Origin: Bugula neritina
Lineage: Eukaryota; Animalia; Bryozoa
NCBI GenBank assembly: GCA_964035545.1
Contig: OZ037766.1
Coordinates: forward strand, 9,414,722 to 9,478,721
Direction: 5' to 3'
DNA length: 64,000 nt
Shown: one piece after another, positions 1,472 to 24,600 of the stretch
Layout: each line of letters begins with the position of its first letter
How positions within the stretch are numbered: position 1 is the stretch's first letter
Made by a program: the position numbers and the translations under genes
Notes under the pieces: model-generated
The model's database searches: none
Told to the model about the DNA's origin: nothing
Seen by the model: only the letters and a program-made list of their open reading frames with translations

Positions 1472-1535
<64 letters not shown>

Positions 1536-2641: not shown

Positions 2642-3242
2642 ATGGCCGATCAGTGGTACATTCCTGATGACACGAACGAGGAGGAAGTAGCTGTAACATG
2701 CAGAATATGCAGCAGGTTCTTTACTGATGCCAGAAGTTTGGAATGTGGAGACAGTTTTTGTTTCTGCTGCATAAAACGTGTTCAACAGAGTGAAGAGAAG
2801 ATAGCCTGCCCTGTGTGCACTACAGTGTGTGTGCCGGCCATGGTGGATTTGCATAGTTTACAGCCCAACTTCAATTTAAATAGCATGGTTGCAATAGTTA
2901 TGCAGCAAAAAGGTAAATTTAGAGGCATTGGTTTGCATTTAATTTATCTAGCATGCAACCTATAAAGATTGCATGTACAGTATAATAATTTAAATTTATA
3001 AAATATAAATGAAAAAACTTGACTTTCTATGCAAATTTTGCAGTTATTCAAGTTGAAAAAATTAAAAGCAAAGGGAACCACTGCACTGTGACATGTGATT
3101 TTTGTCGTGTCTCTCAATTTTATGGTCCAAGATACAAATGTGGGTAAGTGCAGAAAATGACATTACATTCATACTAGGAAAACTTGAGTTGATGGGTTAT
3201 GCAATGCATAAACATGATCCTTCTGCATAATATATCAAGAAA

Positions 3243-3304
<62 letters not shown>

Positions 3305-4478
3305 TGTTTACTCATCGCCCTATAATGAGTAAAAACAGCCATACAATTATACAGAGTGTGCGATGATTATGACCTCTGTGCAAAGTGCGAGGGAAAGCCG
3401 AGACAGGAAATTCACGATGAGTCTCACATATTCTTGAAGCTGAAGAGACCTCGCACTGCAGAAGGCTCACATGGGCCATCACTGACACAGGTTACTCTTG
3501 TTGCCCACAGATTTTCATAACCTATCATAAAATTATTCCCACAATTTGTTTTCATTCTTTAACTTCCTTTAATAAGATGTGAAATCAAATGGCATGCTAA
3601 AAATTACTTGTTAATGCACTAGATCCATATTGTAGCTTATTTTTGCTACATAAAGGTTAGTCTAGGTTACTTCTTATTTTTAAAATGTGGCTTTAAAACA
3701 TAGCTATTACCTATACATACTTTTTATACTAGATTCTTCTATATATCCTGTGGAAAACTTTCATTGTCACCTTCTGAAATAACTTTTAATAGGGATTTAT
3801 TGACAAAATAAAAGAGCTTAATGCACCGACTGGTACACAGACTCAAAATGAATGCTGTGCTCTCAAATGTACGGGATGTGAGAGTTCCATCCCAGAAGGT
3901 TATGTTTACAAGTGTGGGTAAGTTCAATAGTCTACAATTCAGCTATAATCACTATGTAGCAAACATGGCTACAATAATTGCTATTTTTACTAGTCGAACA
4001 CTGCTAGAACATTAATAGAACTTTTTAATTTGGCAAATTTACAATTTAGTTAAAATAAGCTAAAGTATAACTTTTCACTTCTACTCAGAAAACTAACATT
4101 ATGAATTGCTAAAGGCACTCAGAAATGTTATGCTGAAGTTATTGACAAAATAGACCTGTGTGTGTTGTGTGTGTTGTGTGTGCTGTGTGTGCTGTGTGTG
4201 TTGTGTGTGCTGTGTGTGCTATGTGTGCTGTGTGTGCTGTGTGTGTTGTGTTGTGTGTGTGTGTTTAAGAAACATTTGGATTACTCACAATTAGCAATAC
4301 TTCATTTACTATGACATTTTATAGATTATGCGAAGATTACATACTGTGTGACAATTGTGAAGACAACTCTGAAGAATTACATGACAAGAAACATGTATTT
4401 ATGAAAATACACGCCCAGCATCCTTTATGCAAAGATTTACCAAGAGAAGTGGTTTTGCAAGCAAAGTTCTATAAATAA
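2642..4478 (+). CDS. RING-ZZ-ZZ protein, paralog 1 (putative E3 ubiquitin ligase, 261 aa). Exons 2642-2912, 3044-3143, 3355-3490, 3793-3917, 4325-4478
   Basis: All introns are GT-AG and phases match (1,2,0,2); total 786 nt. RING CRIC-x11-CGDSFCFCC-x12-CPVC; ZZ1 CDFC..CGVCDDYDLCAKC..H-x3-H; ZZ2 CTGC..CGLCEDYILCDNC..H-x3-H. Probable non-coding first exon with donor GTGAGT at 2271. Confidence 0.88.
3243..3297. repeat. (CA)n microsatellite in intron 2 of paralog 1
   Basis: Direct observation. Confidence 0.95.
4157..4264. repeat. TG-rich minisatellite (about 9-bp TGTGTG(C/T)TG units) in intron 4 of paralog 1
   Basis: Tandem TGTGTGTTG/TGTGTGCTG units. Confidence 0.9.
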
Positions 4479-5294
4479 ATTACTGTGTATTATTTAAGTG
4501 AATCAGTATTTTCAACTGTGAAACTGTGTCTATATTAATTAAACTGTAATGCTAAGCGGGTGTATTTACATAGATTATATTATAATATATTAAATATACA
4601 TTATATACATTTGGTGAAATGCTTATATAATACTTTCCTGTGAAGAAAAGTTAGCAAACTGTACACAAATTAATTGTGATTATTTAAAACGATGTTTTAG
4701 CCTTATATACACTCCTGCTGCTGCTAATCTTACATAACAATTGCATACTTAACTTATAGCACCTCGGCTCTGTTGTAATTGAATTGTTGAGCATGTTTAC
4801 ATTAATTTTTCTGATTTAATGATAAAAGTTATATTAAAATAAAACTTGTTTTTCTAAAATAAACTCAAACGCTGCTATTATTTTGCTGTGGACTTTCAGC
4901 TTTCAACTAAATACTTCACATTGAGCTACCGTAAAATAAGGAACACAAAATAATATAAACATAACATTTATAGACACCACAGAAATAATGATACATTGGA
5001 TTGAATATTAAATCACCTGTTCCCAGAAAGCTTTTCTTTAAACAGTATACATCTCAAAAACTATATTCTAAAAACATATAATATGAACATAATTTGTAGT
5101 AATTGCATATTTAAATATTTATATGTACAGCTAAATTAGAGTTATAGTAGGTCTTGTAATAATTAATATAAAAGTAAATGTAAGTGGTGTAAATTTGTAG
5201 GCCAACAAATGAAACAGAAAACTACTTTTAGTTAAAACTTAGCTAGACTAACAATATTATTATACAACTGATCAGCTCATATAACAATTACATC

Positions 5295-6890
5295 CCTCAG
5301 CTAACTTGGGACTTTTACCATCATATATTCTGCTCCAGACTCTCACTAAACAATAAATGTCCTAAATTTTACTTACCCATGTGTTTTTTTATTTTGTATG
5401 TTTTTTAAGTTAGATTATCTATTGGCTTGGTATTTCTTTTATAGAGATTTGCATTTCCTCTGTTAAAGATAGTAATGCTGTTTACTTAAAGCACCAAGTT
5501 TCTATAATGCTGCAGAAGGCTAAAAGATAAAAATAAAAAATGACATTTGAAATTTTCTTTTTAAATGAGTTTAAAATTTGGATGCTTTTTCCTGGCACCT
5601 TTTAAATCTTAAAACTTTTATGTTGTTTGGTGTGATGGCTAATAAGATTTTTTGATAATTGTTATTTATACTTAGGCTGAAATGACAATTGTTTTCTATG
5701 CTCAAATAATTACCTTCAAGGCCGACCTTAATTCAAGGGAAAAAATACTTTGCCTGAAAATGTTGTCTTTATGCCTGAAATCTGGGTAACAAAGTGGCCC
5801 AAAGATCACTTGTGCTTCCGGCATAGATACAGATTATTGTATGTATAAGCTACTACACTGTAGAATAGCATCTTATTATACTATTTGCAAGATTATTCTC
5901 AAATTTAAAAGTAATTGTATATTTTTAGGTTAGTAATTATTGTTGGTATCAGTAATCAAATATATAGATTTCTTTCAGCTTATTTGATTACTTTAAAATA
6001 AACTTTTATGCAAATTTTGTCAAATAGTAGGGCCATAATTTTGTGAAATAAAGTGCTACATAAAACTAGCATTATTAATGTATCATATCTGTTCTGTGAA
6101 CTTCAGATTGTAAAGAATGATACTATAATCTCGGTAAGTGTAATATGATAACCAGTAAATATTTGTTACACACATTATTAGCCCTTAATTTCTTATGTGT
6201 ATAGGGCTTTGAGCTTTGGTATTACTTATATTCAAAATGCTGATTACAGTGCATATTATATGAATATGATTTTCCAAGTCAGCAGACAGCAATACAATGT
6301 GCTATGGGTTATGACTATGACTATGTGTAGTATAAATGCAAGTACACTCATTATATACACAGTATGTTTTGCCACCCAACCATCGGGCAAAATGAAACTG
6401 CATTATTGAGCCATGCAGGAAAGTCTACTGATAGTCTTTAACAAAAGCCTGCCATTAGAGCAGCTATTTAAAACAACTAGTTTTCTTTTAATAACTAGCC
6501 TTGTGTGTGCCTGGACCAGTGCTTACTCTGACAAAGCTATAGAGATTAAGATAGGGATTAGAGATAGAGCTTGGTAGTGATACTGACTTTGAAGGTTGGA
6601 GTTTTCACTGTGAGTATAGTTGCACCTTATATACCTTATGACCAGGTACTTAAGCCTTGAACTACTAAACTAGTACCATAAAGTATACACATTTATATAA
6701 AGATGACACTTGTCTCTTAGCTCAGGTTCGTAGCTGTTGTTTCATTGGCTGTTGCTACTGCTTTATTAAATAATATTGTTGCCACTATTGCTTTGTGTTG
6801 TTTTCAGTCTATACAATTATAGTAATACAGCATTCAAAAATGTCCATATTCTTCACATTTTGATTAATCTTGTAACTGTATTGAAACATT
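5295..6890 (+). repeat. Duplicated intergenic/promoter segment, copy 2, starting with a relic of the gene-0 terminal codons
   Basis: CCTCAGCTAACTTGGGACTTTTACCA matches the gene-0 end CCTCAACTAACTTGGGACTTCTACCAA; colinear with 934-2470; shared donor GTGAGT at 6610. Confidence 0.85.
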
Positions 6891-6955
6891 TTTGTAAAAC
6901 AAGTGCTGAAATAAAAACAGCTACATGCAGGTAATATAAAATATTGATTCAATAA

Positions 6956-7386
6956 TGTAGTGGTTGGGGGAAGTATACCCCTCACTGCCCCTGCTAAACA
7001 TAGTGTAACTAATGTCAAGGACGACAACTCCGCAAGCTATGCCGCAGTTCCATGCAGCGCCCATTACTCTTCACAATAACACCGCCGGAATCTTATATCA
7101 TCCAATCAGGATCAACCCTCTGTATATAAGCGATACCTTCCGGCACCCACAGCCAGTCTTGACAGTAGTAGTAGACAAACAGGTTAACTACATGTAACAT
7201 TTTTTGTCGAATTACATTTGTTCTCTTTTGTACTTATGAGTTATCTCTATTGTGTATAATTAACTATAATACAGTTCTTTCTTGAACGACCAACTAGTTT
7301 GGTTCCTCACATAACCTCACAAGTGGATATACAGTAAATACCAGCACACAATAACACCCTAACTAGTAGTGCACAAAACTACAACA
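6956..7386 (+). mobile_element. Solo LTR (431 bp), family unrelated to the 9645 element, in the presumed 5'-UTR intron of paralog 2
   Basis: TGTAG...CAACA termini, 4-bp TSD ATAA (6952-6955 and 7387-7390), internal CCAATCAGGATC and TATATAA motifs; homologous to 35773-36161. Confidence 0.8.
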
Positions 7387-7902
7387 ATAAAAACGAATTT
7401 TAGGCTGTCCATAAACATCTATGAAAATAGTTCTAATAATCTCTTTGAATAAACTCATATGCATTTTAAAAAGTTAGTTATCTATATAGCTACAGTGCAT
7501 GCATAGACTCTAACAATACTTGTCCAATGTCAGGGCCAATTGCTATTAGAATTTCAATATATAATATATATATATAAATCAGAATTCAACAACCTCTATT
7601 TAGCTTCTTATAAAAGTTATTGTTTCTATCAGTCATAAGAGAGTAACTGCAAAGCAAAATTGCATGTTTTAGATGTAATTATATTGTGGAATATCAACTA
7701 AATATTATTATGATTATTGATTAAATAAGCCTGTAGAGATGATGTATCTGGAACAAACTGGATGTAGACCTCTCTTATAGTTCAGACTGATAACTGTTAA
7801 TTACATTATTTCTATATACACTCCTCAATTATATAAATATAAACATAATAGTTATTATAATAGATACATACAATTTTAGTTTACAAATGTTTAATAGCAA
7901 AA

Positions 7903-10900
7903 ATGGCCGATCAGTGGTACATTCCTGATGACACGAACGAGGAGGAAGTAGCTGTAACATGCAGAATATGCAGCAGGTTCTTTACTGATGCCAGAAGTTT
8001 GGAATGTGGAGACAGTTTTTGTTTCTGCTGCATAAAACGTGTTCAACAGAGTGAAGAGAAGATAGCCTGCCCTGTGTGCACTACAGTGTGTGTGCCGGCC
8101 ATGGTGGATTTGCATAGTTTACAGCCCAACTTCAATTTAAATGGCAAAGTTTCTGCAGTTATGCAGCCAAAAGGTTGATATAATCTTATATGTATTTTAA
8201 AATCAATTTATGTCACATGCATGCATGTGCTCAGTTCGTCATTCCAATTTTAATCTACTAGATTAAAATGTAAGTCCCATGTAAATGTAGCTGTTTACGG
8301 TCTTAAATTCTTTGGTCAAATTCTAGAGCAACATAGGTATTTTTGTTGAATGGCCAAATATGCCAAAAGCAGTTATGATTGATGAATGCTCTGCTTGATT
8401 TAAGATACATATTTATAAATACAATTATTGATATTGAGTTTAGACTTCACCTGCATGTCTACCTTCCTACAAAAAATTTCTCTTAGGGACACCGATGAAA
8501 CGTAATTAAAATTAAACAGCAGACGCAGTGTGATTAAAACGCAAGTTAATGCCTCTAGTACCATGAACAGTTAGATATTAGCAGCTGCTGTTTTTATCAC
8601 TGCTGTAACATAATGATATGTAAAATATCTGTAGTCATTCAAGTCGAGAAAATAAAGAGAAGGGGAAAACACTTTGGAGTAACTTGTGACTTTTGTCAGA
8701 CTTTAGGATTCTATGGCCCAAGATATAAATGTGGGTAGGTGAATAAAATAATCTAGCAAAACATGTCTATAATAAAAAAGTCATGTTGTCAATGTGATTG
8801 ATAATAAAATTGGTTTGACATTTCATTTTTGAACTTTCCATGGAACCCAGCCTTTAAACCTTTCACACAAAGTTTGCCCTACTAGTTCCGAATAATAGCC
8901 CAGTAGCACTTATCACAACTGAGTGTATAAACTACTCACCTAATCTAATCAGTTATGTACTAATTTTATAAATGTTAAACTTTTGCCCAACTGCCAAATA
9001 ACTAATTTATCCTTCAATATAACAAAGGTATTATATGCTCTGTAGCAAATGCTAGTAATGCAAAACTATAAAGCGAGAGTATAATTGCAGACATGTAATT
9101 TTTAACATGTTTGCAATTCTCAAACATGTAACTTGAAAATATTGAAAAATGATCATAATTGAAGATTATTATTTAAGATAAAAAGTAGAACAAAGTTGCC
9201 CAACTATGTCATTCAAAAACATGCATTTTTGCAGCTAAACTTGCAAAATTTTATATAATTATAACTTATAATGGTGAGATATTAGAGTTGGTACACACCC
9301 CTGATCTCGTTTGATTTTTATATGATCTGGCATGGGGTGGAAAAGGAAACGTTATAGGGAAAAGCAGAAGTCACACTCATAGGCTAGTACAAGTCTAAGC
9401 CAACCTTGTAGTGCTTTGTTTCTATATGAATATGAACACATATTTATATTCTAAGTGCAATTGCAGCGTTTGTGATGACTACGATGTTTGTGAGAAATGT
9501 GAGGCTAAGCCACGAAATGAAGTTCATGATGTATCCCATGTGTTCATAAAACTGAAGAGACCTCAGACAGCTAAAGCATCCTATGGCCCCTCATTTACAC
9601 AGGTACTCAACTGCAGTGACATTTTGAATCAGCATTTATACTTGTGTGGTGGCTCGTGGAGCTACCAGCAGCACAGCATACAGGGTCGCGTAATTGACCC
9701 GGAACAATTGATAGCCAATTAGCGGGTTTGATAGTTAGCAGCAATAATAGTTTTCCTGCTGTTAGTCAGTCGAAGTTAGAGTGCTGAATAGACTAGATGT
9801 GTAAATTGTCAGATGTATTTGTCTCGTTTTTATAATGTATTATTGTGTGTAAAATATATACTCGTTCACTCGACTTATCTTGGTGCAGTTCTATAGCAAG
9901 TAATTAGACTCTCTGGATAGCATATCAACCCTAAATCTGAAAAACTTAACAGTGGTGGCAGTGGTGGGATAGTGCATCCAAGATGGAGACTGAAAATGCT
10001 GGAACGCAACCACCGGCAGTAGAAGGTGAGCGTAGAGACAATGCTGTAGAGACAATGCCTGTTAACCATGTAGTAGAAGAGCGAAGGGTTCCGCGAGAAC
10101 TAACTGAAGACCGCTACCGGTTAAAGGCGCCCACCTTCACGGGCGAAGAGGAGGTGGAACAATTTATCCAAGAGTTTAGCGACGTAATGGACGTCGCCCA
10201 GTGGCCCCCTAGGGTGGCCTTGCTGAAGCTTAGAATGGCATTGATGGACAAAGCCAAGCCTTATGGGCTGGGCGTAGACATTGATAATATCTTTGCTTCT
10301 CTGCGGGCCCGCTTCGGCCTCTCTGCTACAGATGCCAGGGCCCGATTGCAGAGGTTGCGGCGTGATCCCCGCACCCCGCTGCGGGAGCACGCCGCCGCGG
10401 TCATGAAGCTGGCACAGATTGCGTACAGCGACTTGCCCCCAGTCAACCGCGAGAGGTATACCCTCGACGCTTTCATAGCATCTGTCGACGATTTGGGTCT
10501 CCACCACCAGTTTCTAGCTAGGGGAGTCACCATCGTTGAAGATGCTCTGACTGAGGGAGAAGCTTACCTCCTAGCTAATCAAATGCATAAAAGTCGCGGG
10601 AGCTCCCGTCAAGTGGAGGTAGACCGCGCGGACACGGCCGCGGGACAAGGGGAGGAAACCCCCGCCGCGGCTGCCGTGTCCCAGCTGGCGACGGCATCGA
10701 AAGTCACTCAACTGACAGACATGCTGGCCAAACTGATAGCAACACTGACACCCCAAACCCCAGTGAGTACCGCCACTGAGCCCGTGCGGCCGCCGGCGCC
10801 GCCACAGGGAGAAGCAGTCAGTTTTTGCTGGGAGTGCGGAAATCAAGGACATTTCCGCCGATACTGTCCCTTCCTAAATCAGGGGTTAAACTACCGCGGC

Positions 10901-13900
10901 CCGCAGATGTTCCCACCTCCTGCGGGCCGACGATGAAACCTCCAGGGAAGAAGAAACGCAGGTCACCCAGACGGGTACTGCGTACTGGTAACCAACCGTG
11001 GCAACAGCCACGACGGACCAGCAAGGGGCTCCGCCCCGCCGCTACCTTTTCCATGCCCCTTCACAACAGATTCGCAGGGCTACAAGTCCAAGAATCTGTA
11101 TGGGAGCCCACAAAGGTAGCCGGGAATCTAGCCTCGGCACCCCCGAGGCCTACTTACCACCGCCCCAAGAGACCTCCTTCGCGACCCAAAGCGAGGGAGG
11201 TACTCCCTGCGAGAGTAAGGCCTGAAGGGAGAGTTCAGGTGCAGCCCCATGGGAACAGCTATTTCTTGCCCGGTAAACTGGAAGGCAAAGCTGTTACTTT
11301 CCTCATTGATTCGGGCTGTACCACGAACCTCTTGAGCCGCCAACTCTTCGACACCCTCAGTGCTAGGGCACCCTAGCTGACGGGTCATGCCTTCCCTTCT
11401 ATGGTATAATTGAGCTGACGGGACGAGTCCGTGATCAAACGATCCAAGAGACGTTCATCGTCAGTCAGCTCAAGGAGGACGCCATCCTCGGGATGCCATT
11501 CCTAAAACGGCACGGATGTCACATCGATTTTAGCAAATCTGCGATGATGATGTCCGGGCGAGAACTCGCCTGCGTCGACAAGTTCGGCCGCCCTTTAGTG
11601 GGAGGTGTGCAAGTGGTACGCAACCGTACCATACCAGGCCGCTCCCGGGCTACCATTCACTGCAGGGTGAATAATAGCCGGATCTCTGGACTCGGGGTAG
11701 TTGAAGGCGCGCACGAAAAGATCCAACTTGCCAGCAGTCTGAATCAGCTGACTGAGCAAGGGGAGATCTTAGTGCAGTGCGTCAACCCCTTTACCGAGTC
11801 TGTCAAGCTTCCGGCTGGGTCGATGCTGGGCCGTTTTCACTCTGTTCAGGAGGAGGACGTAGGCCCGTCGCTGGGTGATGCGACAGGGGCACTCCCTCAG
11901 TGCCCTACTCAAGGGCGAGGGACAGTCCCAGCACATCTCCGGGAGTTGTATGACACAGCCTGTAGCGGCTGCGCGAGTAACAGAGAACGCCAAGTTATGG
12001 CGAAGTTACTACGCAACTACGGTGATGTGTTCAGCAGCGGAGATCATGACGTGGGACTGACTGGAATTGTCAGACACGAAATACCGTTGACTGCAGGAAC
12101 ATTCCCTGTCCGGCAGCCCACACGCAGACTGGGGCCGGAGAAAGAGAAGGAGGTTAGCCGACAAGTACGGGATCTTCTGGACCGGGGACTGATAGAGCCC
12201 GCCCATAGTGCGTGGAGCTCGCCGGTCGTGCTGGTCCGGAAGAAAGACGGCAGTTGGCGGTTCTGTGTGGATTACCGCAAACTCAATAGCGTAACCATAC
12301 AGGACGCCTACCCTCTACCTCGTATTGACGAGTCGTTGGACGCCCTAGCCGGCAGCAAGTACTTCAGTACGTTAGACTTGCTGAGTGGCTATTGGCAAGT
12401 CCCTCTAAGTCCCGACGCCCAGGAAAAGGCGGCGTTTATCACACGGGACGGGTTGTGGAAGTGGAAGGTGTTGCCTTTCGGGTTGACCTCCGCCCCAGCC
12501 ACCTTCCAGAGGCTGATGGAGCAAGTCCTCAGCGGGCTCCATTGGAAGACACTGCTGATCTACCTCGATGATGTCATCGTGATCTCCCCAGACTTCGAGA
12601 CACATGTCAGTCGTCTGCAGGAGGTTTTCGAGAGACTCCGAGGTGCCGGTCTTAAGCTCAAACCTTCTAAGTGCGCTCTATTGCAGCCAGAGGTTAAGTA
12701 CCTGGGGCACGTTGTCGGGCGAAACGGCGTGGCAACGGATCCCGAGAAGGTGCGGGCAATAGAAGACTGGGTCAACCCCCAAGACTTGACCGGACTCCGG
12801 GCTTTCTTGGGGCTGGTAGGGTATTACAGACAATACATACCAGACTTTGCGGGCATAGCACAGCCATTAAACCGGCTCACCGCAAAGGGAGTGACGTGGC
12901 AGTGGACCCCAGTCGAACAAGGAGCGTTCGACCGCCTCAAGGGCTGCCTGCTAACGGCGCCCATCTTGGCCTACTCAGACCCCACTCTGGAGTACATCCT
13001 CGACACGGACGCCAGTGACCAAAATGTTGGCGCTGTGTTGTCTCAAGTGCAGGAAGGCCGAGAGGTAGTAGTAGCCTACTACAGCAAGTCTCTCTCACCC
13101 ACTGAATGAAATTACTGCACTACCCGCAAAGAGCTGCTGGCAGTAATCAAGTCAGTGAAGCACTTCAGACCATACCTATATGGCAGGAAGTTCCGGCTGC
13201 GTACGGATCATGCCTCGCTGATCTGGTTGTGCAAGAGAGCAGAGCCCTCTAGTCAGGTCGCCTGGTGGCTCGAAATCCTAGCTGAATTCTCATACCGGAT
13301 CGAACATCGACCGGGCAAGAGACACAGCAATGCGGATGGGTTGAGTCGCCGACCTGATGGAGGTTGCAAACAGTGTCTCAACATCGAGAGGAGGGATGGA
13401 GGTCCCCCGCGATGCGAGTTGGAGACGCTGGCTCACCACGGAGCACCGTTTGACTGGGACCAGGGTCAACTCAGACAGGAAGTTGATGAGTCCCCGGAGG
13501 GTGTACAAAACCTCCGCGCCAACCCTGTACTGGCCGGTAATGTTCGAGAGCTGAAGAAGCTCCAAGAAGAGCTGCCTGGAGTCGTGGCAGACATATACCG
13601 GGCCAAAGGGGAAGGGCGACGACCCAGCGAGGAACGCATACGACAGGGATGCGCCGAGTTCCGGCTATACTGTCAGCGTTGGGACTCGCTGCGGATCGGG
13701 CAGGATGGGTTACTAACCATCTCTTTAGCCGCCAGCGGCAGACACCCGGAGAGGAAGAGGGTAGTCTGCCCCACTGCCATCCGCCGTGAGTTGATTTGGG
13801 ATACTCACAAACAGGCCCACGCAGGGGTCAAGAGAGTGATGTCCAAATTACGACTCCGGTGGTATTGGCCACAAATGGAGCGTGACGTCCGGCTCAGAGT

Positions 13901-16900
13901 CAAACAGTGTGAGATCTGCCAGGCCAGTAAGCATAGCCGTCCCCCTGGTGAAGCAGGACGGCGGAGGCTATATGCTGGTAGGCCCTGGCAAGTAGTCGCT
14001 GTAGACCTGGTCGGACCCATGCCCCTGACCCCCAGAGGCAATAGTTGGATCTTAGTACTAACCGACCACTTTACTAGGTGGGCGGATGCTCTGGCTATCC
14101 CAGATGCGTCAGCCCCAACAGTGGCCAGGGCACTAGACCAACATGTATTCTGTTATTTTGGTCTCCCCGAACAGATACACTCTGATCAAGGCGCTCAATT
14201 CCAGTCTCAACTGATGAGCGACCTTTGCCACCTCTGGGGAGTAAATCAGAGCCGGACCACCCCCTACCACCCTCAAGGTAATGGGGTGGTGGAGCGCAAC
14301 AACCGGATGCTAGGTGATGCGCTCCGGAGTCTTCTCCTTGGACGAGGCCAAGAGGAATGGGATACGGTGTTGCCGCAAGTCATGCGTGCATACCGTAGCA
14401 CCCCACACACCAGTACTGGTGAGACCCCAAACCTCTTGATGCTCGGGAGAGAGACTCGTGTCCCTGACCATCTCACCTACCACGTTCCAGAGCAAGACAA
14501 CTCGGTTCACGAGTATGCCAGTGAACTAGTGGAACGGATGAAGGCCGCACACGATATACTGCGCGAACAGCAGTGGAAGGTGCGGCACGAAGATTCCGAT
14601 GAACCACCTCTCTACCAAACGGGAGATAAGGTGTGGATGGTCAATTACCGTAGGCGTCGCGGACAGGCTGATAAACTGAAGCCTAAGTTCGTAGGACCCT
14701 ACGTGATCGTCGAGGCTATGCCCAATCATACGTACAAGATTGAGCGCTCAGGACAGGTGTCTATCCAGAATGAGTCTCGCTTGAAACCGTATTGGGCTAG
14801 CCCCGACGCAGTGGGAGAAGCCCCCCCGTTGTTGGAACCCAGGAGGCAGACAACAACGCGCGGGCGACGGCGGCATGGACCTGAATACGAAGTGGTCATA
14901 CCGCGGGAAGAAAACTTGGTGAGAGAGGAGCGACAGCTTTTGCCAACGGAAGCGTGTCCGCCACCGCCAAGTTTAATTCCATCACTTCCAGAAACCGAGC
15001 CGGTTCCGGAAGTGCAAAACCCCACGGAGGGAGGGGCTCCATCCGGAGAACAAGAAGAGGTGACCGCTAACGGTGAAGTGGAGACGCCATTAGAGGCCCC
15101 TACTAATGAACCGGCGAGCGTGTCACCCCCCCTAGAACGGGGGCAGCGTACGAGACAACCCCCCGCATACTTGAAGGACTTCGTATGCGACTGCGTTAGA
15201 AGCGGCGCGTATGAAAGTCTAGGGGAAAACCGTACGAGAAAAGTATCGAGCAAACGTGGGAGTTGTCAACACCACGAAAATATCAACTTTTGTATCGGCG
15301 GAAATAGAAACAAAATTCATCCGCCGGGTGCACAAAGTCTTAATCACGCACCCCAACCACGTTGCTCGATCTTTTCATACGCTGATGCAGTCAGGAGTAG
15401 ACGTGTTTCTAAGCAGTAGTTCAAACCATTTCACACATTCAGTATGTCTTACGACAACAGATCGTGGGGTGAGTTAACTATATCTTAATATGAAACTAGA
15501 TTGCATCGCTCAGCTCCGACTCACTGAGTCAATCGAGCTGGAGATAGGTTAGTGAAATACCGTAGTAAGAACTCAGTTTGACTTAGAGATTTTTATAATC
15601 TCATTGCAATACGTGTTCTATCTGACTATTCACTACCATAAATCTCTACGAGGTAACTGAATGAGGAGTTGCCAGGCTATTCAAGCCGACAACACGGCAG
15701 TGTACTGTACTAACACTGTTGAAACTTTTTCAGATTACACTCGACCCGCTACAACCAGGGTACGGGATAGAGCACTTCCCGCTCCGCATCCTGGGGAGTA
15801 TGCCAATGGTGACCGGCCCGAGCCACTGCGCCGCCGTTGGCGGTGGGTGTCTCCAGAAACAGAGGAGCAGATAGAAACGGCCTGGGGGTCCAGAGGACGG
15901 ACGCGGTGCCAGATTTGTGGCGAAGAATGTGCCTCTCACTGCTCCTTGAAGCTACATGTCAACGCCCATCTCTTACTCACATTCTGCCCCTGCGGATACA
16001 ATGATGTCTACCCCTACCCTGTCACCAGACATCGAGCAACAGGCTGTTTCTCCGGAGAGAATTACGTGGTAGATGCCAAGCTCTATCCAGAATTCCTCAC
16101 TCTGATACGACCTCTAGTAAAGAAGGCGATGTTGTTAGCCGTCCTGACCTCGGGTTTCCAGCGTGTACTAAACAATGCCAGGCAACAATCTCCATTGGTA
16201 TCTGACCGCCCTCAGATTGCGTACACTCCCGAAGAGTTTTCCTATCCCGAAGAAGGAGAGGTCTCCCCTACCCCGATGAAGAGACGAACCAGGTCTCCCA
16301 GTCCCCCTCTGCGCCGCAGACGGACACTGTCCCCAGACCCTGCTCGCCTGGCCACAGTAGAGGAACGTCTCCTCCGATTACAGGAGGAATTTACCCAGTT
16401 AGCACCCGACCTGCTCAACACCACGACGGGGCTCTTCCAACTGAAAGGATCAGTGGGCCGGATCAAGCGGAAGCTACGTACATGCCAAGCCAAACATCGG
16501 CGTGCCCAACATTGACTCTGGTTCTGCTACCCGGAATAATCCACAACTTCGTCCTCTTGGGAGACCCAAGACTATCATGCAAATGCTTGACTGCTCGACA
16601 GGTCGACTCTTTGTCCAATACACAGTTAGTTTAAGGTCATTACTTTCCAAATTCAGGCACTGCTTTATGTTATATATAAACGGTTTCCAGGGGATAGCTC
16701 GAACAGTTTTTGTCTCACATTAACAAGTTTTACATGAAAAGATAGCTCTTGCATTCCTCTTTCATATACTTTTTTAATTTTTCAATAAAAAATTTTCTGA
16801 GAAAGTTGTTGCATAATAAGTAAAATTTTACACCCTCCATGTTCCACTGCTGTAGCACAGGGGATTCGTTTTATAAAGTCTAAAAGTTAAACTTGACATT

Positions 16901-19900
16901 CCTTGATATGTTTTCTCTAATATACTTTCTTTGTTTTTTGAAATTCTGTTTATGCTCTTCACAATTTGGTAAAAACATACACCATTTTGCAAGTTTCACT
17001 GCAATTTTCTAAATTCTTCATATGGTGGTTCTAGCTACGCTCCTGTGACTAATTATAACATTCCTAGTACGTTTGCCGCTCTGCGCTATCACAATAACAT
17101 ATAGTACCCTCTCGCACAAATTGGCAATCTATTGGATTTCTGCCAATATAATGTTCCCTGTTTTACATTAGCACTTAGCTGAATCATCTCACTATGTTAC
17201 AATAATAATATATTGAAAATGCCTCAGCACAACATAATTCTTTGTTTGTTTGGCAGAGTTAATTTCAGCTAAATCACTTCACTTTGCAGTCTTGTCAGTA
17301 AAGGTCTGTCTATAGCGCAGCAGGTGTATACTTTCAGTTTCTCTAATTCACATATGATTATTTTAAGTACATTGTATTCTATAAGATCAATTTAAGGTTT
17401 AGTCCAGTGTTCAGTATCTAATTATTATGCATGTATGTTGTCTTACTGTTGAACAAAAGTTAAAAAAAAACTTTACAATTATAGCCATATTTATTATACA
17501 TGCGTAGGATTTGCATAAGTTGACAAAAAAAATTGCAACAAAATAGGGTTGAACCATGACCAACCAACTCGTCGCTGACGCCTCTAACCTCTGGACCACG
17601 CAGTCATTATTCAAAAGACGCGCACTATATGAGTCACTATGATTACATAAATATTTCGCTCGCAAATGGGTTATAATTATTAGGCTGTCAATTCATGTTG
17701 ATAGCAGTCAACTGTTGCAATAGTCTCGGGTTACTAGCAAAGCTAATGGTTTTGAACAAATAACCCAAAAGTTTAAAAATAAGTAGCTTGCGTATTACTA
17801 GCTACAAAAACAGGTCTGAAATAGACTGGTAAAGCAAGCTCTTATTGTAGAATTTGCAGATGTGCTCTAAAATAAAACTTAAACTGTATGCTATTACATA
17901 AGTATTTGTATGCGAGAGATAAATGGACATTACTGAGTTTCTGGAAAACAACATACTTGAAGTTAACTTTGACAATGGTGTGTTATTTTCATCATAGCTA
18001 GCCTATAGCATAAATCTCTAATCATATGAATCTTTATGAAGCCCACAGCTCATGTAAGGGTGGCAATGTAATTTGAAATGAACAATTATGTTGCTGCATT
18101 GTGTCTAAGGTATATTAGAGAGCAAAATTTGGTTTTACTAGCCTACCCCAACGGCATTCTACAATGCAGCTTATATGCTGGCAGTTGTAATAAGTACTGC
18201 CAATAGCAAGGTTACTATCACTGCTAGCTCTGTGCAGCATGTAACCTCTTGAATAATTGCGCCAATTTTAAACTCATGGAAGTTGGCCAAGTTATCATAT
18301 CGCAGCCAGCCACCGGAGACAAAGCATCAGAGCTATTCATATAATATTATACTAATGCACTTGGTAGCAGAGTGGCTAATCTAATATAGTTCATAGTTCC
18401 ACACCCTTTACTTTGGGAATACAGCCTCTTTTTTTAGGTTTACCTTACAAAGCATGAAAATATCTAAACTGATATTCTGATAATTTAGAGGTACATTTTG
18501 AAAACTAGGTTAATTGCACTTGTTTGCACAACAACAATAATAAAATAGATATTATGCAGTATAATAAAAACACACATAATACTATATAATATATTACAAT
18601 GATAATAATATAATATTATAAGTACCATTACTGCATTTTATAAATCACATGATTGCCAAAAAAATGTATCACAAATTTTGTAATTATACATCAAAAATAG
18701 AACTAGCTAGGCAGCAGGTTAGAATAAAGTAAATTTTTAAAACATGAAATCATGATTTGACTATTGTTTTATTTAGGCCAACCAACCTAGGAATACAAGA
18801 TTGGGTTTTAGCTGACAGTTTATAACATTTAGCTTTTGAGCCAGCAGCACTGGCACTTGTGAAGTATAGGCAAAGTTAGTGAAGCGAGACTAACAAGCAC
18901 TCAAATACAAGGCATATTGAGACACAATAACAAGTCAGGAGCGTATAAATTGAAAAGAATGTGGAAGGGGGACTATGTTTTTCAACAAGCTATAACTTAA
19001 ACATGAATTGGCTTTTGAAAAAAATAAAAAAGTATATTGGAGAACATAAGTTTCTTTATCTTTTCATATTTTTTTTGTTCCTGTGACATTCAACCTGTTC
19101 GAGCTATCAGTGGAACATTGTTCATATAGAACATAAAGCACCTGGCAAAGAGCCAGAAAATGAAAAGTATGACCTTAAACCAACTGTGTACTACAGCTAG
19201 CCGGTATTCCTCCTCTATAGCTGGCCAATTGTATGTAACTTGCTGTTATAATGACTCTGTCTGTTATTAGATATCTTTATATGTGTTATGTACTATCTTT
19301 TGGTCTACTGATGTATGTGGTTAATGATGAATGTTTTTTTATCAGAAAGAGGGCTTTCTGCTGGTGGGGGCGGTGTGGTGGCTCGTGGAGCTACCAGCAG
19401 CACAGCATACAGGGTCGCGTAATTGACCCGGAACAATTGATAGTCAATTAGCGGGTTTGATAGTTAGCAGCAATAATAATTTTCCCGCTGTTAGTCAGTC
19501 GAAGTTAGAGTGCTGAATAGACTAGATGTGTAAATTGTCAGATGTATTTGTCTCGTTTTTGTAATGTATTATTGTGTGTAAAATATATACTCGTTCACTC
19601 GACTTATCTTGGTGCAGTTCTATAGCAAGTAATTAGACTCTCTGGATAGCATATCAACCCTAAATCTGAAAAACTTAACACTTGTACATTTGATAGAATA
19701 ATGTTCACGCTTGTAGTAATTACTGAAATGTTGTTAAAATATTATTTATATATTATGTGTTTATAGCTTAGCTAATACAACTGATTGAGTTAGCATTGCA
19801 AAGGTTTAAACAACAAATACCAGCAGGTTAATTTTTTATCAAGAAGTAATAAAATTTTAGATAATTACAATAACTTTAATTTTCAAACATTTTGAAGCAA

Positions 19901-20631
19901 TTCATTGACCAAATGAAAGAACCTAAACCGGAAACACAGACTTGGAAAGAATCTGATTTTCTCAAATGCAACCAATGTAAGATTTCTATTCAAGATGGTC
20001 ACGTTTATAAATGTGGGTAAGGAAAAATAATTTCTATCCCTACTTAAAAAGTTAACACGAAATATGCTTTTAATATGTCTAACAATATATCTACATATAT
20101 GAAACAACTTGTAAATATTACATTCAGGCTAACAATGCTGTAATGTATAAGAGACACTGAATTAACACCATTTTGAGATACAAAATTTAAGCTACTTTTC
20201 AAGACTATATAGGCGGCCAGTAGAAATATAACTAAATTTGACTATTTTACAAACTATTCTAGGCGTTGCTTAGCTGGTAAGACTACATAAAATTGTTGTA
20301 GAAATTTTTAGTGAAGAGCCTACATGTGAATTATGACCAATTTATTTGACACTTGCTTGAATTAATTAAACAGCTCATAATAAATGACCTACTCAGTTGC
20401 AGAGTAAGTTCAAAGGCCGGGCCATTAGTTGAGCCAACTGCAGGTAATATAATGCTTATGTTTACTATAATATACAGATCATGTGAGGACTACATACTGT
20501 GTGAAAATTGTGAGGACAAGTCTGAAGAATTTCATGACAAGAAACATCTATTTATGAAAATACACGCCCAGCATCCTTTATGCAAAGAGCTGCCTAAAGA
20601 AGTGGTTCTGCAAAGAGAATTCTACAAATGA
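7903..20631 (+). CDS. RING-ZZ-ZZ protein, paralog 2 (259 aa). Exons 7903-8173, 8635-8734, 9467-9602, 19898-20016, 20478-20631; intron 3 contains the Gypsy element
   Basis: Exon sizes 271/100/136/119/154 mirror paralog 1 (271/100/136/125/154) with the same phases; the spliced frame is open to TGA at 20629-20631. The exon 4 acceptor is a weak TTTTGAAG. Confidence 0.85.
9645..9951 (+). repeat. 5' LTR (307 bp)
   Basis: TGTGGTGGCTCG...AAACTTAACA; differs from the 3' LTR at 4 positions by my count, all transitions. Confidence 0.97.
9953..9970 (+). promoter_or_regulatory. Primer-binding site complementary to the tRNA-Leu 3' end
   Basis: TGGTGGCAGTGGTGGGAT begins 1 nt after the LTR and is the reverse complement of the metazoan tRNA-Leu (AAG/TAG-type) end ...AUCCCACC(A/G)CUGCCACCA. 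Confidence 0.85.
9983..10936 (+). CDS. gag: Gag (317 aa) with C-terminal CCHC zinc knuckle
   Basis: Intact ORF 12 nt after the PBS; capsid-like APTFTG..EQFI..F..V..W region; CWECGNQGHFRRYC knuckle. Confidence 0.93.
   Translation: METENAGTQPPAVEGERRDNAVETMPVNHVVEERRVPRELTEDRYRLKAPTFTGEEEVEQFIQEFSDVMDVAQWPPRVALLKLRMALMDKAKPYGLGVDIDNIFASLRARFGLSATDARARLQRLRRDPRTPLREHAAAVMKLAQIAYSDLPPVNRERYTLDAFIASVDDLGLHHQFLARGVTIVEDALTEGEAYLLANQMHKSRGSSRQVEVDRADTAAGQGEETPAAAAVSQLATASKVTQLTDMLAKLIATLTPQTPVSTATEPVRPPAPPQGEAVSFCWECGNQGHFRRYCPFLNQGLNYRGPQMFPPPAGRR
10885..10949 (+). promoter_or_regulatory. Programmed -1 ribosomal frameshift signal (gag to pol)
   Basis: G_TTA_AAC (10885-10891) in the gag frame, 5-nt spacer, perfect 10-bp stem CGGCCCGCAG (10897-10906) / CTGCGGGCCG (10920-10929); loop TTCCC can pair with GGGAA (10945-10949). 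The -1 frame is open into the protease. Confidence 0.85.
10891..15419 (+). pseudogene. pol: Pol (aspartic protease, RT, RNase H, integrase with GPY motif), inactivated
   Basis: LIDSG protease motif (about 11302-11316), YLDD (12561-12572), LDTDAS RNase H, HHCC and D,D35E integrase, KFVGPY, terminal RTRQPPAYLKDFV. Frame break near 11367 (TLSAR then GTLADG in another frame) and in-frame TGA at 13107-13109. Confidence 0.95.
15661..16515 (+). CDS. Retrotransposon ORF3 in the env position: C2H2 plus C2HC zinc fingers, basic SP-rich segment, coiled coil; probably expressed as spliced 9983-10025 + 15734-16515 (274 aa)
   Basis: CQIC-x12-H-x3-H and CPC-x12-H-x4-C; KRRTRSPSPPLRRRRTLSP; heptad-like LATVEERLLRLQEEFTQL; GC-rich like gag/pol; no signal peptide or convincing TM anchor. 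Confidence 0.8.
   Translation: MRSCQAIQADNTAVYCTNTVETFSDYTRPATTRVRDRALPAPHPGEYANGDRPEPLRRRWRWVSPETEEQIETAWGSRGRTRCQICGEECASHCSLKLHVNAHLLLTFCPCGYNDVYPYPVTRHRATGCFSGENYVVDAKLYPEFLTLIRPLVKKAMLLAVLTSGFQRVLNNARQQSPLVSDRPQIAYTPEEFSYPEEGEVSPTPMKRRTRSPSPPLRRRRTLSPDPARLATVEERLLRLQEEFTQLAPDLLNTTTGLFQLKGSVGRIKRKLRTCQAKHRRAQH
15708..15733 (+). promoter_or_regulatory. Branch point plus 3' splice site for an ORF3 subgenomic mRNA (partner donor at 10025/10026)
   Basis: TACTAAC at 15708-15714 and ACTTTTTCAG ending at 15733; donor GAAG|GTGAGC in gag codon 15. The join G+AT restores ORF3 codon GAT. Confidence 0.75.
16621..19188. mobile_element. Non-autonomous TIR DNA transposon, copy A (2,568 bp; CMC/EnSpm-like), nested in the Gypsy 3' UTR
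   Basis: 20-bp TIR CACAGTT(A/G)GTTTAAGGTCAT ... ATGACCTTAAACCAACTGTG, 2-bp TSD TA, subterminal inverted GATAGCTCGAACAG, no long ORF; near-identical inverted copy at 43416-45967. Confidence 0.92.
19363..19373 (+). promoter_or_regulatory. Polypurine tract
   Basis: GGTGGGGGCGG abutting the 3' LTR. Confidence 0.7.
19374..19680 (+). repeat. 3' LTR (307 bp)
   Basis: Direct repeat of 9645-9951 followed by TSD CTTG. Confidence 0.97.
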
Positions 20632-21673: not shown

Positions 21674-24600
21674 ATGGCTAGCCTTCCTCTTCGAGGGATG
21701 GAGGATGTGGTGACGTGTAGCATTTGCCAGGAGCTATACACAGATGCTAGAACTCTCACCTGTGAGCACTGCTTTTGTATGAAATGTCTCCTCTCCTACC
21801 AGACGTCCATAGTGATCAAACCATGCCCTATGTGTAGGGAAGAAACGGTGCCGGCAGCTAGGGAGCTACACAGGCTGCCCAGTAACAAGGCTGTCAACGA
21901 GATGGTGGGACTGATTGTTAGACATAGGAGTAAGCATTGTTCTTTTATCTAGTTGAGTTAATTTGTGTTTTAATTCACTACTTATAAATCAGAAAATGTA
22001 AAATTGATAATAATACAGTCTTAAGACCCTGGCTATGACCATCTAGTAAACTGATCCAAGCAAAAGATACACAAACACTTGAATTCTCTGCTTTAACAAA
22101 GTTACATGCACTGTGTTGATGCATCATGTTGAAACCAAGCTATTTATTCACCCCAGTACTATTCATAAAGTGAAATCCAAAAAATGAAAGCTTGTGATTT
22201 GTTAGATTCATATTTTTATAATGCACGAATGCCATCCTGTTTATTTCTAACTTTTCAGGTAACCAGACCGGAGACAAAACAACAGGTCAAGCTGCAGGTC
22301 AATCAGCAAGTAATGCAGCAGGTAATGCAGCAGGTCAAGCTGCAGGTCAACCAGCAAGTAATGCAGCAGGTAATGCAGCAGATAGTGCAGTAGATAACAC
22401 AGCAGGAAATGCAGCAGATAGTGCAGTAGATAACACAGTATAGATTATGCAGTAGGTAAAGCCAGCAAATATAAAAAATATGTCTGTAAATGTTGTAATT
22501 TTGGAATTCTTTTGATCTACCTTACTCTGATACCTGCTTATAATAACTCTATTGAAAAAATATGTTCCTGAATTGTTTTCACATGGATAATACATACTAT
22601 TGGAGTTGTGTTACCAACTAGTGGGTTGAAGTCTCAGGCACTGAACTGAAACTATAATAGTTCAATGGTCTCAGGAATAACTCATTCAACCAGCTTTTGT
22701 TGATTGACTAGGTTAAAAGTCATTATTAGAAAATTGCATAGTTGGGTGAGCATGGACATGAAATAATTGCCATAATATACATTACTATGCCATAGACTAT
22801 AGAGCAGGGCTGTCCAACAAGCAACCCCAGGGCCGGATGTGGCCCCCAGCCTACATTTATGTGGCCCTTAGATACATAACACATAAAATTATTTTCACAC
22901 TGTACTTATATAAATTAGTTAATGAAAAGCCACCTTTTAAGATGTCTTATTTATACACACGCTACTAAACATGTAGTCTGTAGTCATTATTTGGACTTTA
23001 TTGTGTAATGATTCATAAGAAGTTGGAATAAAGTAATTTGAAAAGACTGATGCTGTGGCCCCCAGCACAAACTAAAGTTGACAACGTGGCCCTCGCCACG
23101 AAATGTTCCTTTTTAGTGGCCCTCGCTCTGAAAAGGTTGGACACCCCTGCTATAGAGTATACATTACTATGCCATAGGGCATAGACTATAGAGTGAGGTA
23201 ACACCAAGTAACAGCTTTGAATACTTAGCAGATATGGGAATAAAACATTAGCATATAGGCTACATATAGTTAACTTTTCTGAGAAGTATATTTTATCATG
23301 TAAAATATATAATATGGTATAATCTACATCAAGGCCTATTGAAAATTAAAAAATGGCCATCAAGATGGCTCTTAATAAGTTATTCTAAAATTAAGAAAGG
23401 TATTTTTTACCCATTACAGGAAATTCAGGCACTAAAACGACTTTAAACAGTGCTAAGCAAGCATCTACTGGAGTGAGTCTGGCAGAGCTTCTTGCAGGCC
23501 GTAGAGCACCACGGACAGCAGACCCAGCGCCTGCTCCTTCAGGTAAACATGCCAGTTCTTGCTTTGCAGAAATTCTAGTGGTCATTGTTGTACCGTGTTA
23601 TAAGCTGCTCATCAATCTAAAGCTTGAACTTAATTTACCATTTCAGTGAAAACTTCTGCGAAAAATGTCCATTCTTTACCTGAACCAAGAAATCAATCAA
23701 TAGCTGAGATCACTCTAACAGAGTTGATAGAGCGTAGGGAGCAGCAACAGAGAGAAGCTAGAGCTGCTAGAGCAGCTAAAGCGGCAGCAGCAGCGCAATT
23801 AGAAGCAGCAGTAGAGTCTTTGGCTGAAGCTTTTGCTTTTATATCCAATGGTGAAATACTAGATTATGTTTATTCAATTTTAGATGAGCAGCTCTATTGT
23901 CTAAATGCTCCTACTGTAAATGTTACAAACTACATTTAACAATCTTGACATGCCCAAATTAGAAGGGCTTGTAGTGATTCAACTAAAACAATTAAATGAA
24001 GCCAATAAGTAGAGCAGGTCAAGTCGAAGTGAGTTCAACTCACGTTGTTTTGTATAAGAAAGTCCCCTCTAACTTTACCGCCTACAATCTAGATTATCAT
24101 CAGATAATCAGCTTCACTAAAAGTTGTTTGATAGTAAAGTTTAAGTTATAAAGTGTTTGTTATGTAGATGATAATAAAACAATGTCTTTAGATAGCAGAC
24201 CAGGGTCCGGAGCTGTACACAATGGTGTAACCTGTGATGAATGCTATGCTACAGATATCAGAGGAGTACGTTATAAGTGTGGGTAGGTTGAGTATGCCAA
24301 CTTGGTATGTTATAAATAAGAATATTTGTTGCACAGCTACCTATAACACATTTGGCAATTTTAAACTCAACTTAGCATATGAATTAAACTTTAAAGTATA
24401 AGTAATAAATGATATTGTTTCACAATTTGAAAGTTTTTAGCTTACGCCATGTTAGGTGGTAGCATTAATAATTGATCTCAATAATATATATAATTAATAA
24501 TCAATAAAGAAAACATTGATTGGTATGGCTTATTATTATCTACCTATCATATAATTTTCACATCAGAATACTGCAAAGATTTTATAAAATGATACTACAG

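Follow-up and report, generated by a model that had tools for sequence, protein, structure and literature searches.

The window, a stretch of 64,000 nucleotides of Bugula neritina DNA, contains a complete Ty3/gypsy (Metaviridae) element at positions 9645-19680 (Table 1). The element has the hallmarks of that group, namely, a TG...CA pair of LTRs with 4 mismatches over 307 bases, a 4-bp target-site duplication, a polypurine tract, and a primer-binding-site-like sequence that we take to be of the tRNA-Leu type. The gene order, gag followed by pol (protease-RT-RNase H-integrase), also fits Ty3/gypsy, and the Pfam domains Asp_protease_2, RVT_1, RT_RNaseH, Integrase_H2C2, rve, and SH3_Tf2-1 were found in pol. 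In this particular copy, pol is disrupted by a shift of frame around position 11370 and by a stop codon at 13107-13109, so that intact Gag-Pol cannot be made from it; the gag reading frame and that of a third gene, ORF3, are both intact. A 2.57-kb inserted DNA element separates the ORF3 side of the element from its 3' LTR. A search of positions 9600-19700 against Rfam gave no match.

Table 1. Positions of the Gypsy element's features within the window
Feature	Positions	Strand	Remarks
5' target-site duplication CTTG	9641-9644		second copy at 19681-19684
5' LTR, TG...CA, 307 nt	9645-9951	+	4 mismatches vs 3' LTR
Primer-binding-site-like sequence	9953-9970	+	immediately 3' of LTR
gag ORF, intact, 317 aa, one CCHC knuckle	9983-10936	+	
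Exon 1 (gag codons 1-14 plus one base)	9983-10025	+	donor 10025/10026
Predicted intron (all of pol, most of gag)	10026-15733	+	
pol (protease, RT, RNase H, integrase with SH3-like C terminus)	10780-15419	+	disrupted near 11370 and by a stop at 13107-13109
Probable -1 ribosomal frameshift signal, G_TTA_AAC followed by GC-rich hairpin	10885-10932	+	
Branch point TACTAAC, pyrimidine tract, acceptor AG	15708-15733	+	
Exon 2/ORF3	15734-16515	+	
Folded tandem C2H2-type zinc-finger domain	15820-16170	+	fingers ~15907-15969 and ~15985-16047
Arg/Ser-Pro-rich stretch, subfamily specific	16279-16323	+	3/111 homologues
C-terminal long helix/coiled coil with basic tail	16339-16509	+	
Noncoding DNA insert with terminal inverted repeats, inside 3' untranslated region	16621-19188		
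Polypurine-tract-like sequence	19360-19373	+	
3' LTR	19374-19680	+	

The initial annotation had proposed a frameshifted Gag-Pol, and a -1 frameshift signal between gag and pol is well supported by the sequence G_TTA_AAC, the hairpin behind it (z of -1.64 for an 86-nt piece), and the residues L-N, which 29 of the 35 Gag relatives have at the corresponding point. Gag would thus be translated from the unspliced RNA and Gag-Pol via the frameshift.

The same annotation had described ORF3 as the second exon of a gene spliced to the start of gag, and a direct recheck of the letters bore out the donor, the TACTAAC branch point, the acceptor, the matching phase, and the 274-aa product. Exon 1 begins with the ATG at 9983 and is 43 nt long, ending in phase 1 at TAGAAG/GTGAGC, the sole AG/GTRAG among 10 GTRAG sites in 9645-16620. 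The TACTAAC at 15708 places the branch A 20 nt 5' of the acceptor CTTTTTCAG at 15733. This heptamer is not rare per se (the window's + strand has 14, and the element has 3); among 25 listed pyrimidine-AG sites, the acceptor at 15733 is the one that combines a perfect branch point with the longest pyrimidine run ending in CAG. Position 15734 is the second base of an ORF3 codon, and the joined frame comprises 825 nt. Removal of the predicted intron would therefore yield the 274-aa protein.

The ORF3 frame is open over 15661-16515, and an in-frame ATG at 15661 is a possible start here and in the homologue P0002. As a rule for the family we rejected this start, since P0050 is without that Met and the upstream frames differ in most relatives. 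A downstream Met is present in the large ORF3 subfamily; the protein encoded in the window has none before residue 132.

Homologues of ORF3 (75 found by search and 144 close ones by profile, 39 to 95% identical) gave family-level evidence for the junction. Their similarity to ORF3 starts at the acceptor with the pattern [FL][SL]/D[YH]TR, while the frames upstream vary; the pattern matched in 29 ORF3 homologues, with 27 of the 29 being true matches. On the donor side, the residues E-G-E occur in 43 of the 54 N-terminally complete Gag relatives among 120 listed, and Gag columns 14 to 16 have conservation values of 0.89, 0.89, and 1.0, compared with 0.32 to 0.45 for columns 4 to 13. A database protein, P0024, carries 14 N-terminal residues identical to those of Gag P0181 and then continues into exon 2 at the predicted residue; through it, the errantivirus-type trait of a third ORF made from a spliced subgenomic RNA was found at the level of the family. 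An intronless LTR-exon 1-exon 2-LTR copy would be the expected source of P0024. Homologues of Gag and ORF3 also occurred on same-size contigs (at least 5.5 kb) in 6 cases versus 0.095 expected, with a maximum of 1 in 400 shifts. Scans with the ORF3 pattern gave 247 matches in metagenome contigs, of which 0 were confirmed, and no match in viral contigs. A profile search of 79 RT-related loci (72 of which were kept in the RT tree) found no ORF3 homologue, the lowest E value, 0.018, belonging to a hit on a minus strand; L001 and L029, which are nearest to the element by RT, stop short of the ORF3 region. Taken together, the splice signals, the homologues, the E-G-E residues, and P0024 support the non-env third gene of the initial annotation well, and we conclude with high confidence that the element carries a conserved gene behind the integrase that is predicted to be spliced from the Gag start.

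These data bear on whether ORF3 might instead be a recently captured host exon that is passively carried, with the splice signals or P0024 being incidental, for example, through a chance deletion. Such a capture could account for the related domains in proteins annotated for Watersipora subatra and Bugula neritina (the named distant relatives of the finger domain are bryozoan proteins) and for the fact that the joined Gag-ORF3 form was seen only once, in P0024, among 249 family proteins. However, those host-annotated proteins are distant from the element's clade, which has a FastTree support of 0.999, and an in-frame deletion hitting both predicted sites is improbable. Moreover, conservation of the donor residues extends across the 10-codon as well as the 14-codon Gag subfamilies, and ORF3 subfamilies that are ~50% identical retain the frame, the zinc ligands (0.83 to 0.98), and the coil, with their linker drifting to ~0.4. 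We therefore regard passive capture as very improbable.

The motifs and a structure model bore out the canonical C2H2 finger and the second, variant finger ascribed to the intact ORF3. The two read C-x2-C-x12-H-x3-H and C-x-C-x12-H-x4-C, finger 2 being a shortened C-x-C variant. Finger 1 has the classical C2H2 motif in 51 of the 71 homologues that cover both fingers, zf-C2H2_4 matched at an E value of ≤0.1 in 22 of 76 members, and the zinc ligands are present in 70 to 76 of 76 sequences, down to ~20% identity. The coil is as well conserved as the fingers (~0.8 per column), and behind it lies a basic tail with a median of 8 K/R in 22 aa (74 homologues). Among 60 distant members, the recognition helices are Arg rich, an acidic N-terminal region was found in 32 of 39 and a basic C-terminal region in 31 of 36, and 18 of 26 show a heptad pattern within their last 60 aa, compared with 3 of 23 controls. 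The long acidic N termini belong to these distant members; the window's own ORF3 has only short acidic patches.

The best 19-aa hydropathy value of ORF3, 1.51, falls in an amphipathic helix of the model, which argues against a transmembrane anchor; the maxima of the homologues have a median of 1.22, with 6 of 127 exceeding 1.8. ORF3 was thus confirmed to be without signal peptide or transmembrane anchor, and these absences, the soluble zinc-finger fold, and the lack of any env Pfam match rule it out as env. An Arg/SP-rich stretch resembling a nuclear localization signal (NLS) is present in the window's protein as annotated, but it is not a family trait, being found in only 3 of the 111 close homologues whose sequence covers the linker. 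In the ORF3 family more widely, basic patches are recurrent. We infer that the ORF3 product is nuclear.

The tandem finger domain was modeled with a pLDDT of 93; an earlier model from a shallow alignment had reached 54, and a fold search with it came back empty. Residues 35 to 84 of the model superpose on the DNA-bound tandem C2H2 pairs of ZBTB7A, ZBTB20, CTCF, and ZBTB38 (root mean square deviation of 2.5 to 2.7 Å over 50 residues, Z of 2.8 to 3.1). Because these Z-scores are low and DNA-bound C2H2 proteins are abundant in the PDB, the superpositions do not in themselves show DNA binding. Neither a Pfam family nor a whole-domain fold match was found: Foldseek with the pLDDT 93 model, run as a check for a known fold of ORF3, returned nothing at an E value of ≤0.001 in the PDB or BFVD, a VIA fold comparison gave no Z of ≥5 (best, 3.5), and the ESM Atlas yielded unnamed clusters and generic C2H2 leads only. 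This absence of a match does not amount to a new fold.

The domain layout fits the accessory-regulator role suggested in the initial annotation. For the family, the order of acidic N terminus, fingers, basic patch, and coiled coil is suggestive of a regulator that acts in the nucleus, an activator binding the LTR being the likeliest kind, and we tentatively favor the view that the ORF3 product is a nuclear DNA-binding activator of the element's own LTR. The 274-aa protein would dimerize through its C-terminal coil, the tandem fingers would contact nucleic acid, and the acidic segments would raise transcription or keep the LTR from silencing, giving a positive feedback comparable to that of foamy-virus Tas or HTLV Tax. 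In the close family, helix positions 1 to 3 of finger 2 read P-Y-P (16, 16, and 15 of 16), unlike those of typical DNA readers, and finger 1 has Leu at helix position 6; both count against an LTR activator. So does the LTR itself, within which no recurring motif of ≥9 nt turned up as a candidate binding site.

A close rival, which we hold to be possible at a lower probability, is that ORF3 encodes a Rev/CERV-like factor that binds the unspliced genomic RNA, multimerizes via the coil, and allows escape from splicing and exit from the nucleus. The near-consensus donor, branch point, and acceptor flank all of gag-pol, so that unspliced RNA would need protection, and the basic tail after the coil would suit such a factor. 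The intron is also more stable than its shuffles (mean z of -1.86, with 16 of 38 folding windows below -2), compared with a mean of -0.1 for exon 2 (0 of 10) and 0.14 for host DNA (2 of 40). However, its reverse complement folds well too (mean z of -1.45), no single response element was distinct, and the geometry of the finger pair is that of tandem C2H2 DNA binders. The precedent is CERV of the Caenorhabditis elegans Ty3/gypsy element Cer1, which, as described in the excerpts of PMC10309623, is a nuclear, Cys-rich, leucine-zipper protein made from a spliced mRNA, has its N terminus in common with Gag, and is required for export. CERV shows that RNA export instead can be the task of a Gypsy element's spliced, Cys-rich zipper protein. 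On the other side, ORF3 shows no evident resemblance to the CERV H, M, and G domains as described there, and spliced-env elements export their RNA without such a protein, as is established for simple retroviruses (PMC10309623, in excerpt).

C2H2 fingers and coiled coils also frequently serve protein contacts. A selected accessory protein with another job, such as anti-silencing directed at the piRNA or chromatin proteins of the host, an adaptor that targets integration, or a repressor of copy number, would be in keeping with this, with a coil as conserved as the fingers, and with the Pro-rich finger 2, which speaks against plain DNA reading. Yet 48 of the 60 distant members have a net basic domain, with Arg conserved on each of the two helices, a finding that speaks for nucleic acid, and no partner protein emerged from any analysis. 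We consider this reading rather unlikely.

The initial annotation's remark that such a gene had not been described holds for this protein family within the literature searched but not for the concept, which Cer1 CERV and bdelloid ORF3s already represent. Like CERV, the putative nuclear regulator ORF3 would combine a Gypsy spliced mRNA, the Gag N terminus, a Cys-rich putative zinc finger, a leucine zipper, and a candidate NLS. It is set apart by length, exon layout, and domain type: in the published description, as excerpted, CERV has 517 aa, five exons (three in the gag frame), a C4 loop, a G-protein-like domain, and no obvious homology outside nematodes (PMC10309623), whereas ORF3, with 274 aa and a tandem C2H2-type domain, comes from an exon that sits in the env position behind a single long predicted intron. 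With the spliced env of errantiviruses, retroviruses, and Oikopleura Tor3a, as excerpted in PMC4402516, ORF3 shares a donor near the gag start, an acceptor behind pol, and a 5' LTR subgenomic RNA, but its product is a zinc-finger protein without signal peptide or membrane anchor. In the bdelloid Vesta/Juno Gypsy elements, the non-env ORF3s encode a DEDDy exonuclease, a GDSL esterase, or transmembrane/coiled-coil proteins; in PMC5408684 as excerpted, the word "zinc" is absent and splicing is assumed, not mapped. Maize Grande gene23, an example of the additional ORFs of plants, is likewise an accessory gene situated after pol and before the 3' LTR with a nuclear product likened to retroviral accessory factors, but it is antisense with its own promoter, and the excerpts of PMC7264820 mention no zinc finger. 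The sORF1 (predicted helix-turn-helix) and sORF2 (fusogen) of the Drosophila MDG1 group are also accessory ORFs of an animal Gypsy group but lie upstream of gag, are unspliced, and encode 70 to 110 aa (PMC11952523, in excerpt). Excerpts of PMC7264820 and PMC10309623 also describe the retroviral Tat and Rev.

ORF3 may be likened to Tas, Tax, Rev, and Rex in that its product, made from a spliced RNA of the 3' region, would act back on expression of the element, although no sequence or fold match to them was found and the analogy is functional only. These retroviral proteins are accessory regulators of virus expression, and element-encoded regulators are a hallmark of complex retroviruses. LTR retrotransposons, on the other hand, are generally held to rely on host factors for transcription and RNA export.

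The confidently modeled finger domain is absent from Pfam. Finger/coil ORFs that appear unrelated to ORF3 occur in a separate RT clade (L035, L051, L075, L079, and probably L031); when the ORF3 profile was compared with the finger ORFs of L079 and L075, only the first finger aligned, with a probability below 1%, and homology is therefore unsupported. A speculative wider reading, which we think doubtful, is that marine-invertebrate Gypsy elements repeatedly placed a zinc-finger transcription regulator in the env slot, switching on their own LTRs via a spliced product, and that some copies of the domain were domesticated; that this repeated acquisition takes in both the ORF3 family and the separate clade is equally uncertain.

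In the literature searched, CERV is the sole worked-out Gypsy regulator, and ORF3 would add a second, structurally different case. The finding cautions that ORFs behind pol should not be called env from position alone, and it allows a direct test of whether transactivators or export factors are encoded by retrotransposons themselves. With the related bryozoan proteins comes the question whether the domain was captured or domesticated. If the reading of repeated acquisition is true, these elements would be envelope-less "complex" retrotransposons.

The Ty3/gypsy retrotransposon that encloses ORF3, the third gene, is complete and retains both long terminal repeats (LTRs; see table). A primer-binding-like sequence, presumably of the tRNA-Leu type, lies directly 3' of the 5' LTR; just ahead of the 3' LTR there is a purine tract. 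The Pfam domains follow the Ty3/gypsy order: protease, reverse transcriptase (RT), RNase H, H2C2 finger, integrase core, SH3-like. pol, which is disrupted in the window copy, occupies the −1 frame relative to gag and is preceded by a likely frameshift signal, G_TTA_AAC with a GC-rich hairpin; L-N at this place recurs in 29 of 35 Gag relatives with a knuckle. Because a complete LTR element with this gag/pol layout surrounds ORF3, ORF3 belongs to the element and occupies the env position. The gag-pol region (10026-15733) exceeds shuffles in folding stability over most of its span (z < −2 in 16 of 38 windows), an excess that ORF3 does not have. Between ORF3 and the 3' LTR sits an inserted 2.57-kb non-coding DNA element, which we take to be CACTA/CMC-like, with terminal inverted repeats ending in CAC and 2-bp flanks of TA at one site and CA at the other; one of its two copies is nested inside the Gypsy 3' UTR.

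Features of the element, the surrounding DNA and related sequences (window coordinates unless a locus handle, L0xx, precedes them)
Feature	Position	Description
LTRs	9645-9951 and 19374-19680	307 nt each; 4 differing positions; CTTG duplication as flanks
gag	9983-10936	open frame
pol disruptions	near 11370; 13107-13109	frame change; stop
Strongest gag-pol folding	near 10995-11144 and 11670-11819
2.57-kb element	16621-19188 and 43416-45967	98% identical
Tandemly duplicated host genes	100-9603 and ~20476-20625	RING exon (Pfam zf-C3HC4_4, E 6e-9)
Other host DNA	22268-22435, 33591-34172, 56255-56743	coding-like 12-15-nt tandem repeats; Ig-like ORF with signal-peptide-like start
Separate-clade finger ORFs	L079:6765-8744, L051:7333-7638, L075:6991-7779, L035:4599-5219, L031:~9053-9139	plus strand
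Env-like ORFs behind integrase, RT-related loci	L016:5565-7654, L052:6553-8622	judged by eye
P0024		ORF3 homologue; 261 aa; 5320-nt JGI contig

The donor, branch point, acceptor, phase and 274-aa product proposed in the initial annotation were all re-derived from the sequence. Exon 1 is 43 nt long and ends in phase 1, the joined frame has 274 codons, the donor is the sole AG/GTRAG among the element's 10 GTRAG sites (the slash marks the splice site), and the branch A of TACTAAC lies 20 nt upstream of the acceptor CTTTTTCAG/. TACTAAC by itself is frequent, with 14 occurrences on the plus strand of the window, so independent evidence for splicing was required.

Such evidence came from relatives in JGI, ENA or Logan, where a single-sequence search found 75 ORF3 homologues and a profile search 144. 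In those reaching far enough, similarity begins at the acceptor with [FL][SL]/D[YH]TR, the encoded product of YAG/A in phase 1, and the frames upstream vary. On the donor side, at least 120 Gag homologues were listed, and among these matches 43 of the 54 with a complete N terminus contain E-G-E, the translation of AG/GTGAG; Gag has two length classes, which place this motif at residue 10 and residue 14. Conservation of the E-G-E columns is 0.89, 0.89 and 1.0, against 0.32-0.45 in the ten preceding columns. One database protein, P0024, alone among 249 examined, has the joined form: its first 14 residues are identical to those of Gag P0181 (12-13 of 14 for 18 other Gags), and it runs directly into exon 2 at the point where Gag reads G-E. 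P0024 would stem from the spliced RNA, directly as a transcript or by way of reverse transcription. Physical linkage was gauged indirectly, by contigs of exactly equal nucleotide size: six ORF3/Gag pairs occurred on equal-sized contigs of at least 5.5 kb, where chance would give 0.095, and a Gag partner of this kind existed for 5 of 10 ORF3 contigs measuring at least 7 kb; matches of all sizes numbered 9 against 2.3 expected. One pair connects ORF3 with the 10-codon Gag class. The donor residues conserved across the family, the similarity starting at the acceptor and the P0024 junction bear out the splicing proposed in the initial annotation and indicate that this Gypsy lineage has a genuine, conserved, non-env third gene that is very probably spliced.

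Some Gag and ORF3 homologues share equal-sized contigs of just 3.5-6 kb (P0074/P0141, P0087/P0161 and P0029/P0188), and some Gags carry a fused fragment of RNase H or protease (P0131, P0189). These are likely internally deleted non-autonomous copies retaining gag and ORF3.

ORF3 encodes an uncatalogued tandem zinc-finger domain and a coiled coil. The canonical C2H2 finger, second finger and C-terminal coil noticed initially are conserved in the close family: conservation there is 0.83-0.98 at the eight Cys/His positions and about 0.8 in the coil, against about 0.4 in the linker, and the finger motifs are intact in 51/71 and 64/71 of the proteins covering them. The Arg/SP-rich stretch proposed as a nuclear localization signal is present but occurs in only 3 of 111 close relatives; a basic tail follows the coil (median, 8 K/R in 22 aa; n = 74). 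We found no membrane anchor in the ORF3 protein. A profile search through all 1.84 billion representatives yielded 121 matches, many distant and limited to the finger domain; among 20 that were checked, three clusters carried organism names (Watersipora subatra twice, Bugula neritina once). Judged by these distant relatives, the element probably resides in a bryozoan. Seven zinc ligands are present in 70-76 of 76 aligned sequences, with which AlphaFold produced a compact 140-residue domain (pLDDT 93, pTM 0.86). No Pfam family spans this domain (zf-C2H2_4 touches 22/76 members at E ≤ 0.1), and a fold search with the model gave no whole-domain match at Z ≥ 5. Model residues 35-84, however, can be overlaid on tandem C2H2 pairs bound to DNA (2.5-2.7 Å over 50 residues). 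The 60 distant members are acidic before the domain (32/39) and basic after it (31/36), with C-terminal heptads in 18/26 (controls, 3/23) and Arg-rich finger helices, a layout that reads as transcription factor-like. Finger 2 of the close family carries P-Y-P, unlike the distant members' pattern.

The element, its splice signals, their conservation and one natural junction, P0024, form the established part. One LTR transcript would then give three products, of which the spliced one would be nuclear and act on the element itself. The geometry of the C2H2 tandem, together with the acidic/basic/coil layout, leads us tentatively to favor a DNA-binding activator of the LTR, analogous in function to the retroviral regulators Tas and Tax. 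A close rival, if a somewhat unlikely one, is an RNA export factor: the splice signals are strong and the intron folds beyond shuffles while exon 2 does not, but the intron's reverse complement likewise folds beyond shuffles. A precedent for export is CERV (PMC10309623), a Cys-rich zipper protein of the nucleus that is made from spliced RNA, shares the N terminus of Gag and is required for genomic RNA export; the Gypsy origin, splicing, Cys richness, zipper and Gag N terminus would be common to both products. Some other accessory role for ORF3 is rather improbable, and we give very little credence to its being passively carried.

No ORF3 homologue was found in the 79 loci retrieved through RT similarity. 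In their RT tree, which lacks resolution at deep nodes, a separate clade (FastTree support, 1.0) has its own plus-strand Cys/His finger ORFs behind integrase. In L035, L075 and L079, acceptor-like sites precede these ORFs and the C-terminal segments are coil-like. Among the 17 loci whose sequence extends 1 kb or more downstream, a strict motif scan found finger ORFs in 3 on the plus strand and in none on the minus strand; visual inspection and tblastn contributed those of L075 and L031. Profile comparisons of the L079 and L075 ORFs with the window ORF3 gave no significant similarity. This layout may have evolved repeatedly, or its copies may have diverged past recognition.

In an unrooted tree of the domain, members of the element's family group as one clade (support, 0.999), a long way from the bryozoan proteins that bear names. 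Those annotated proteins are possibly domesticated copies or the source of a capture, which an unrooted tree does not distinguish. W. subatra XP_067940964.1 and XP_067940963.1 carry the domain twice in tandem plus a terminal coil, and the same domain occurs in W. subatra XP_067944745.1 and B. neritina KAF6040922.1 (database proteins of the P0265/P0364, P0313, P0368 set).

The duplicated host genes also have short Cys/His exons, which by eye resemble ZZ fingers but have no Pfam match. Since the element lies in sense orientation between two such host exons, host transcripts could be trapped by its strong acceptor.

The literature covered, which excluded Repbase Reports, a possible place for such ORFs, and most subscription journals, yielded no paper on an animal Gypsy element with a C2H2 ORF3; the accessible portions of PMC13524379, PMC8220671 and PMC13326412 do not mention such a gene. 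As far as the parts available to us describe them, related cases are non-env ORF3s in bdelloid Gypsy elements (PMC5408684), Tor3a, with a donor near the gag start and an acceptor before env (PMC4402516), extra ORFs carried by plant LTR retrotransposons (PMC7264820) and sORFs in MDG1 (PMC11952523). The initial suggestion that the system was undescribed therefore stands in part: both this mode of expression and the concept of a nuclear regulator encoded by a Gypsy element are already known, and the literature searched contained no description of the ORF3 protein family in the env slot.
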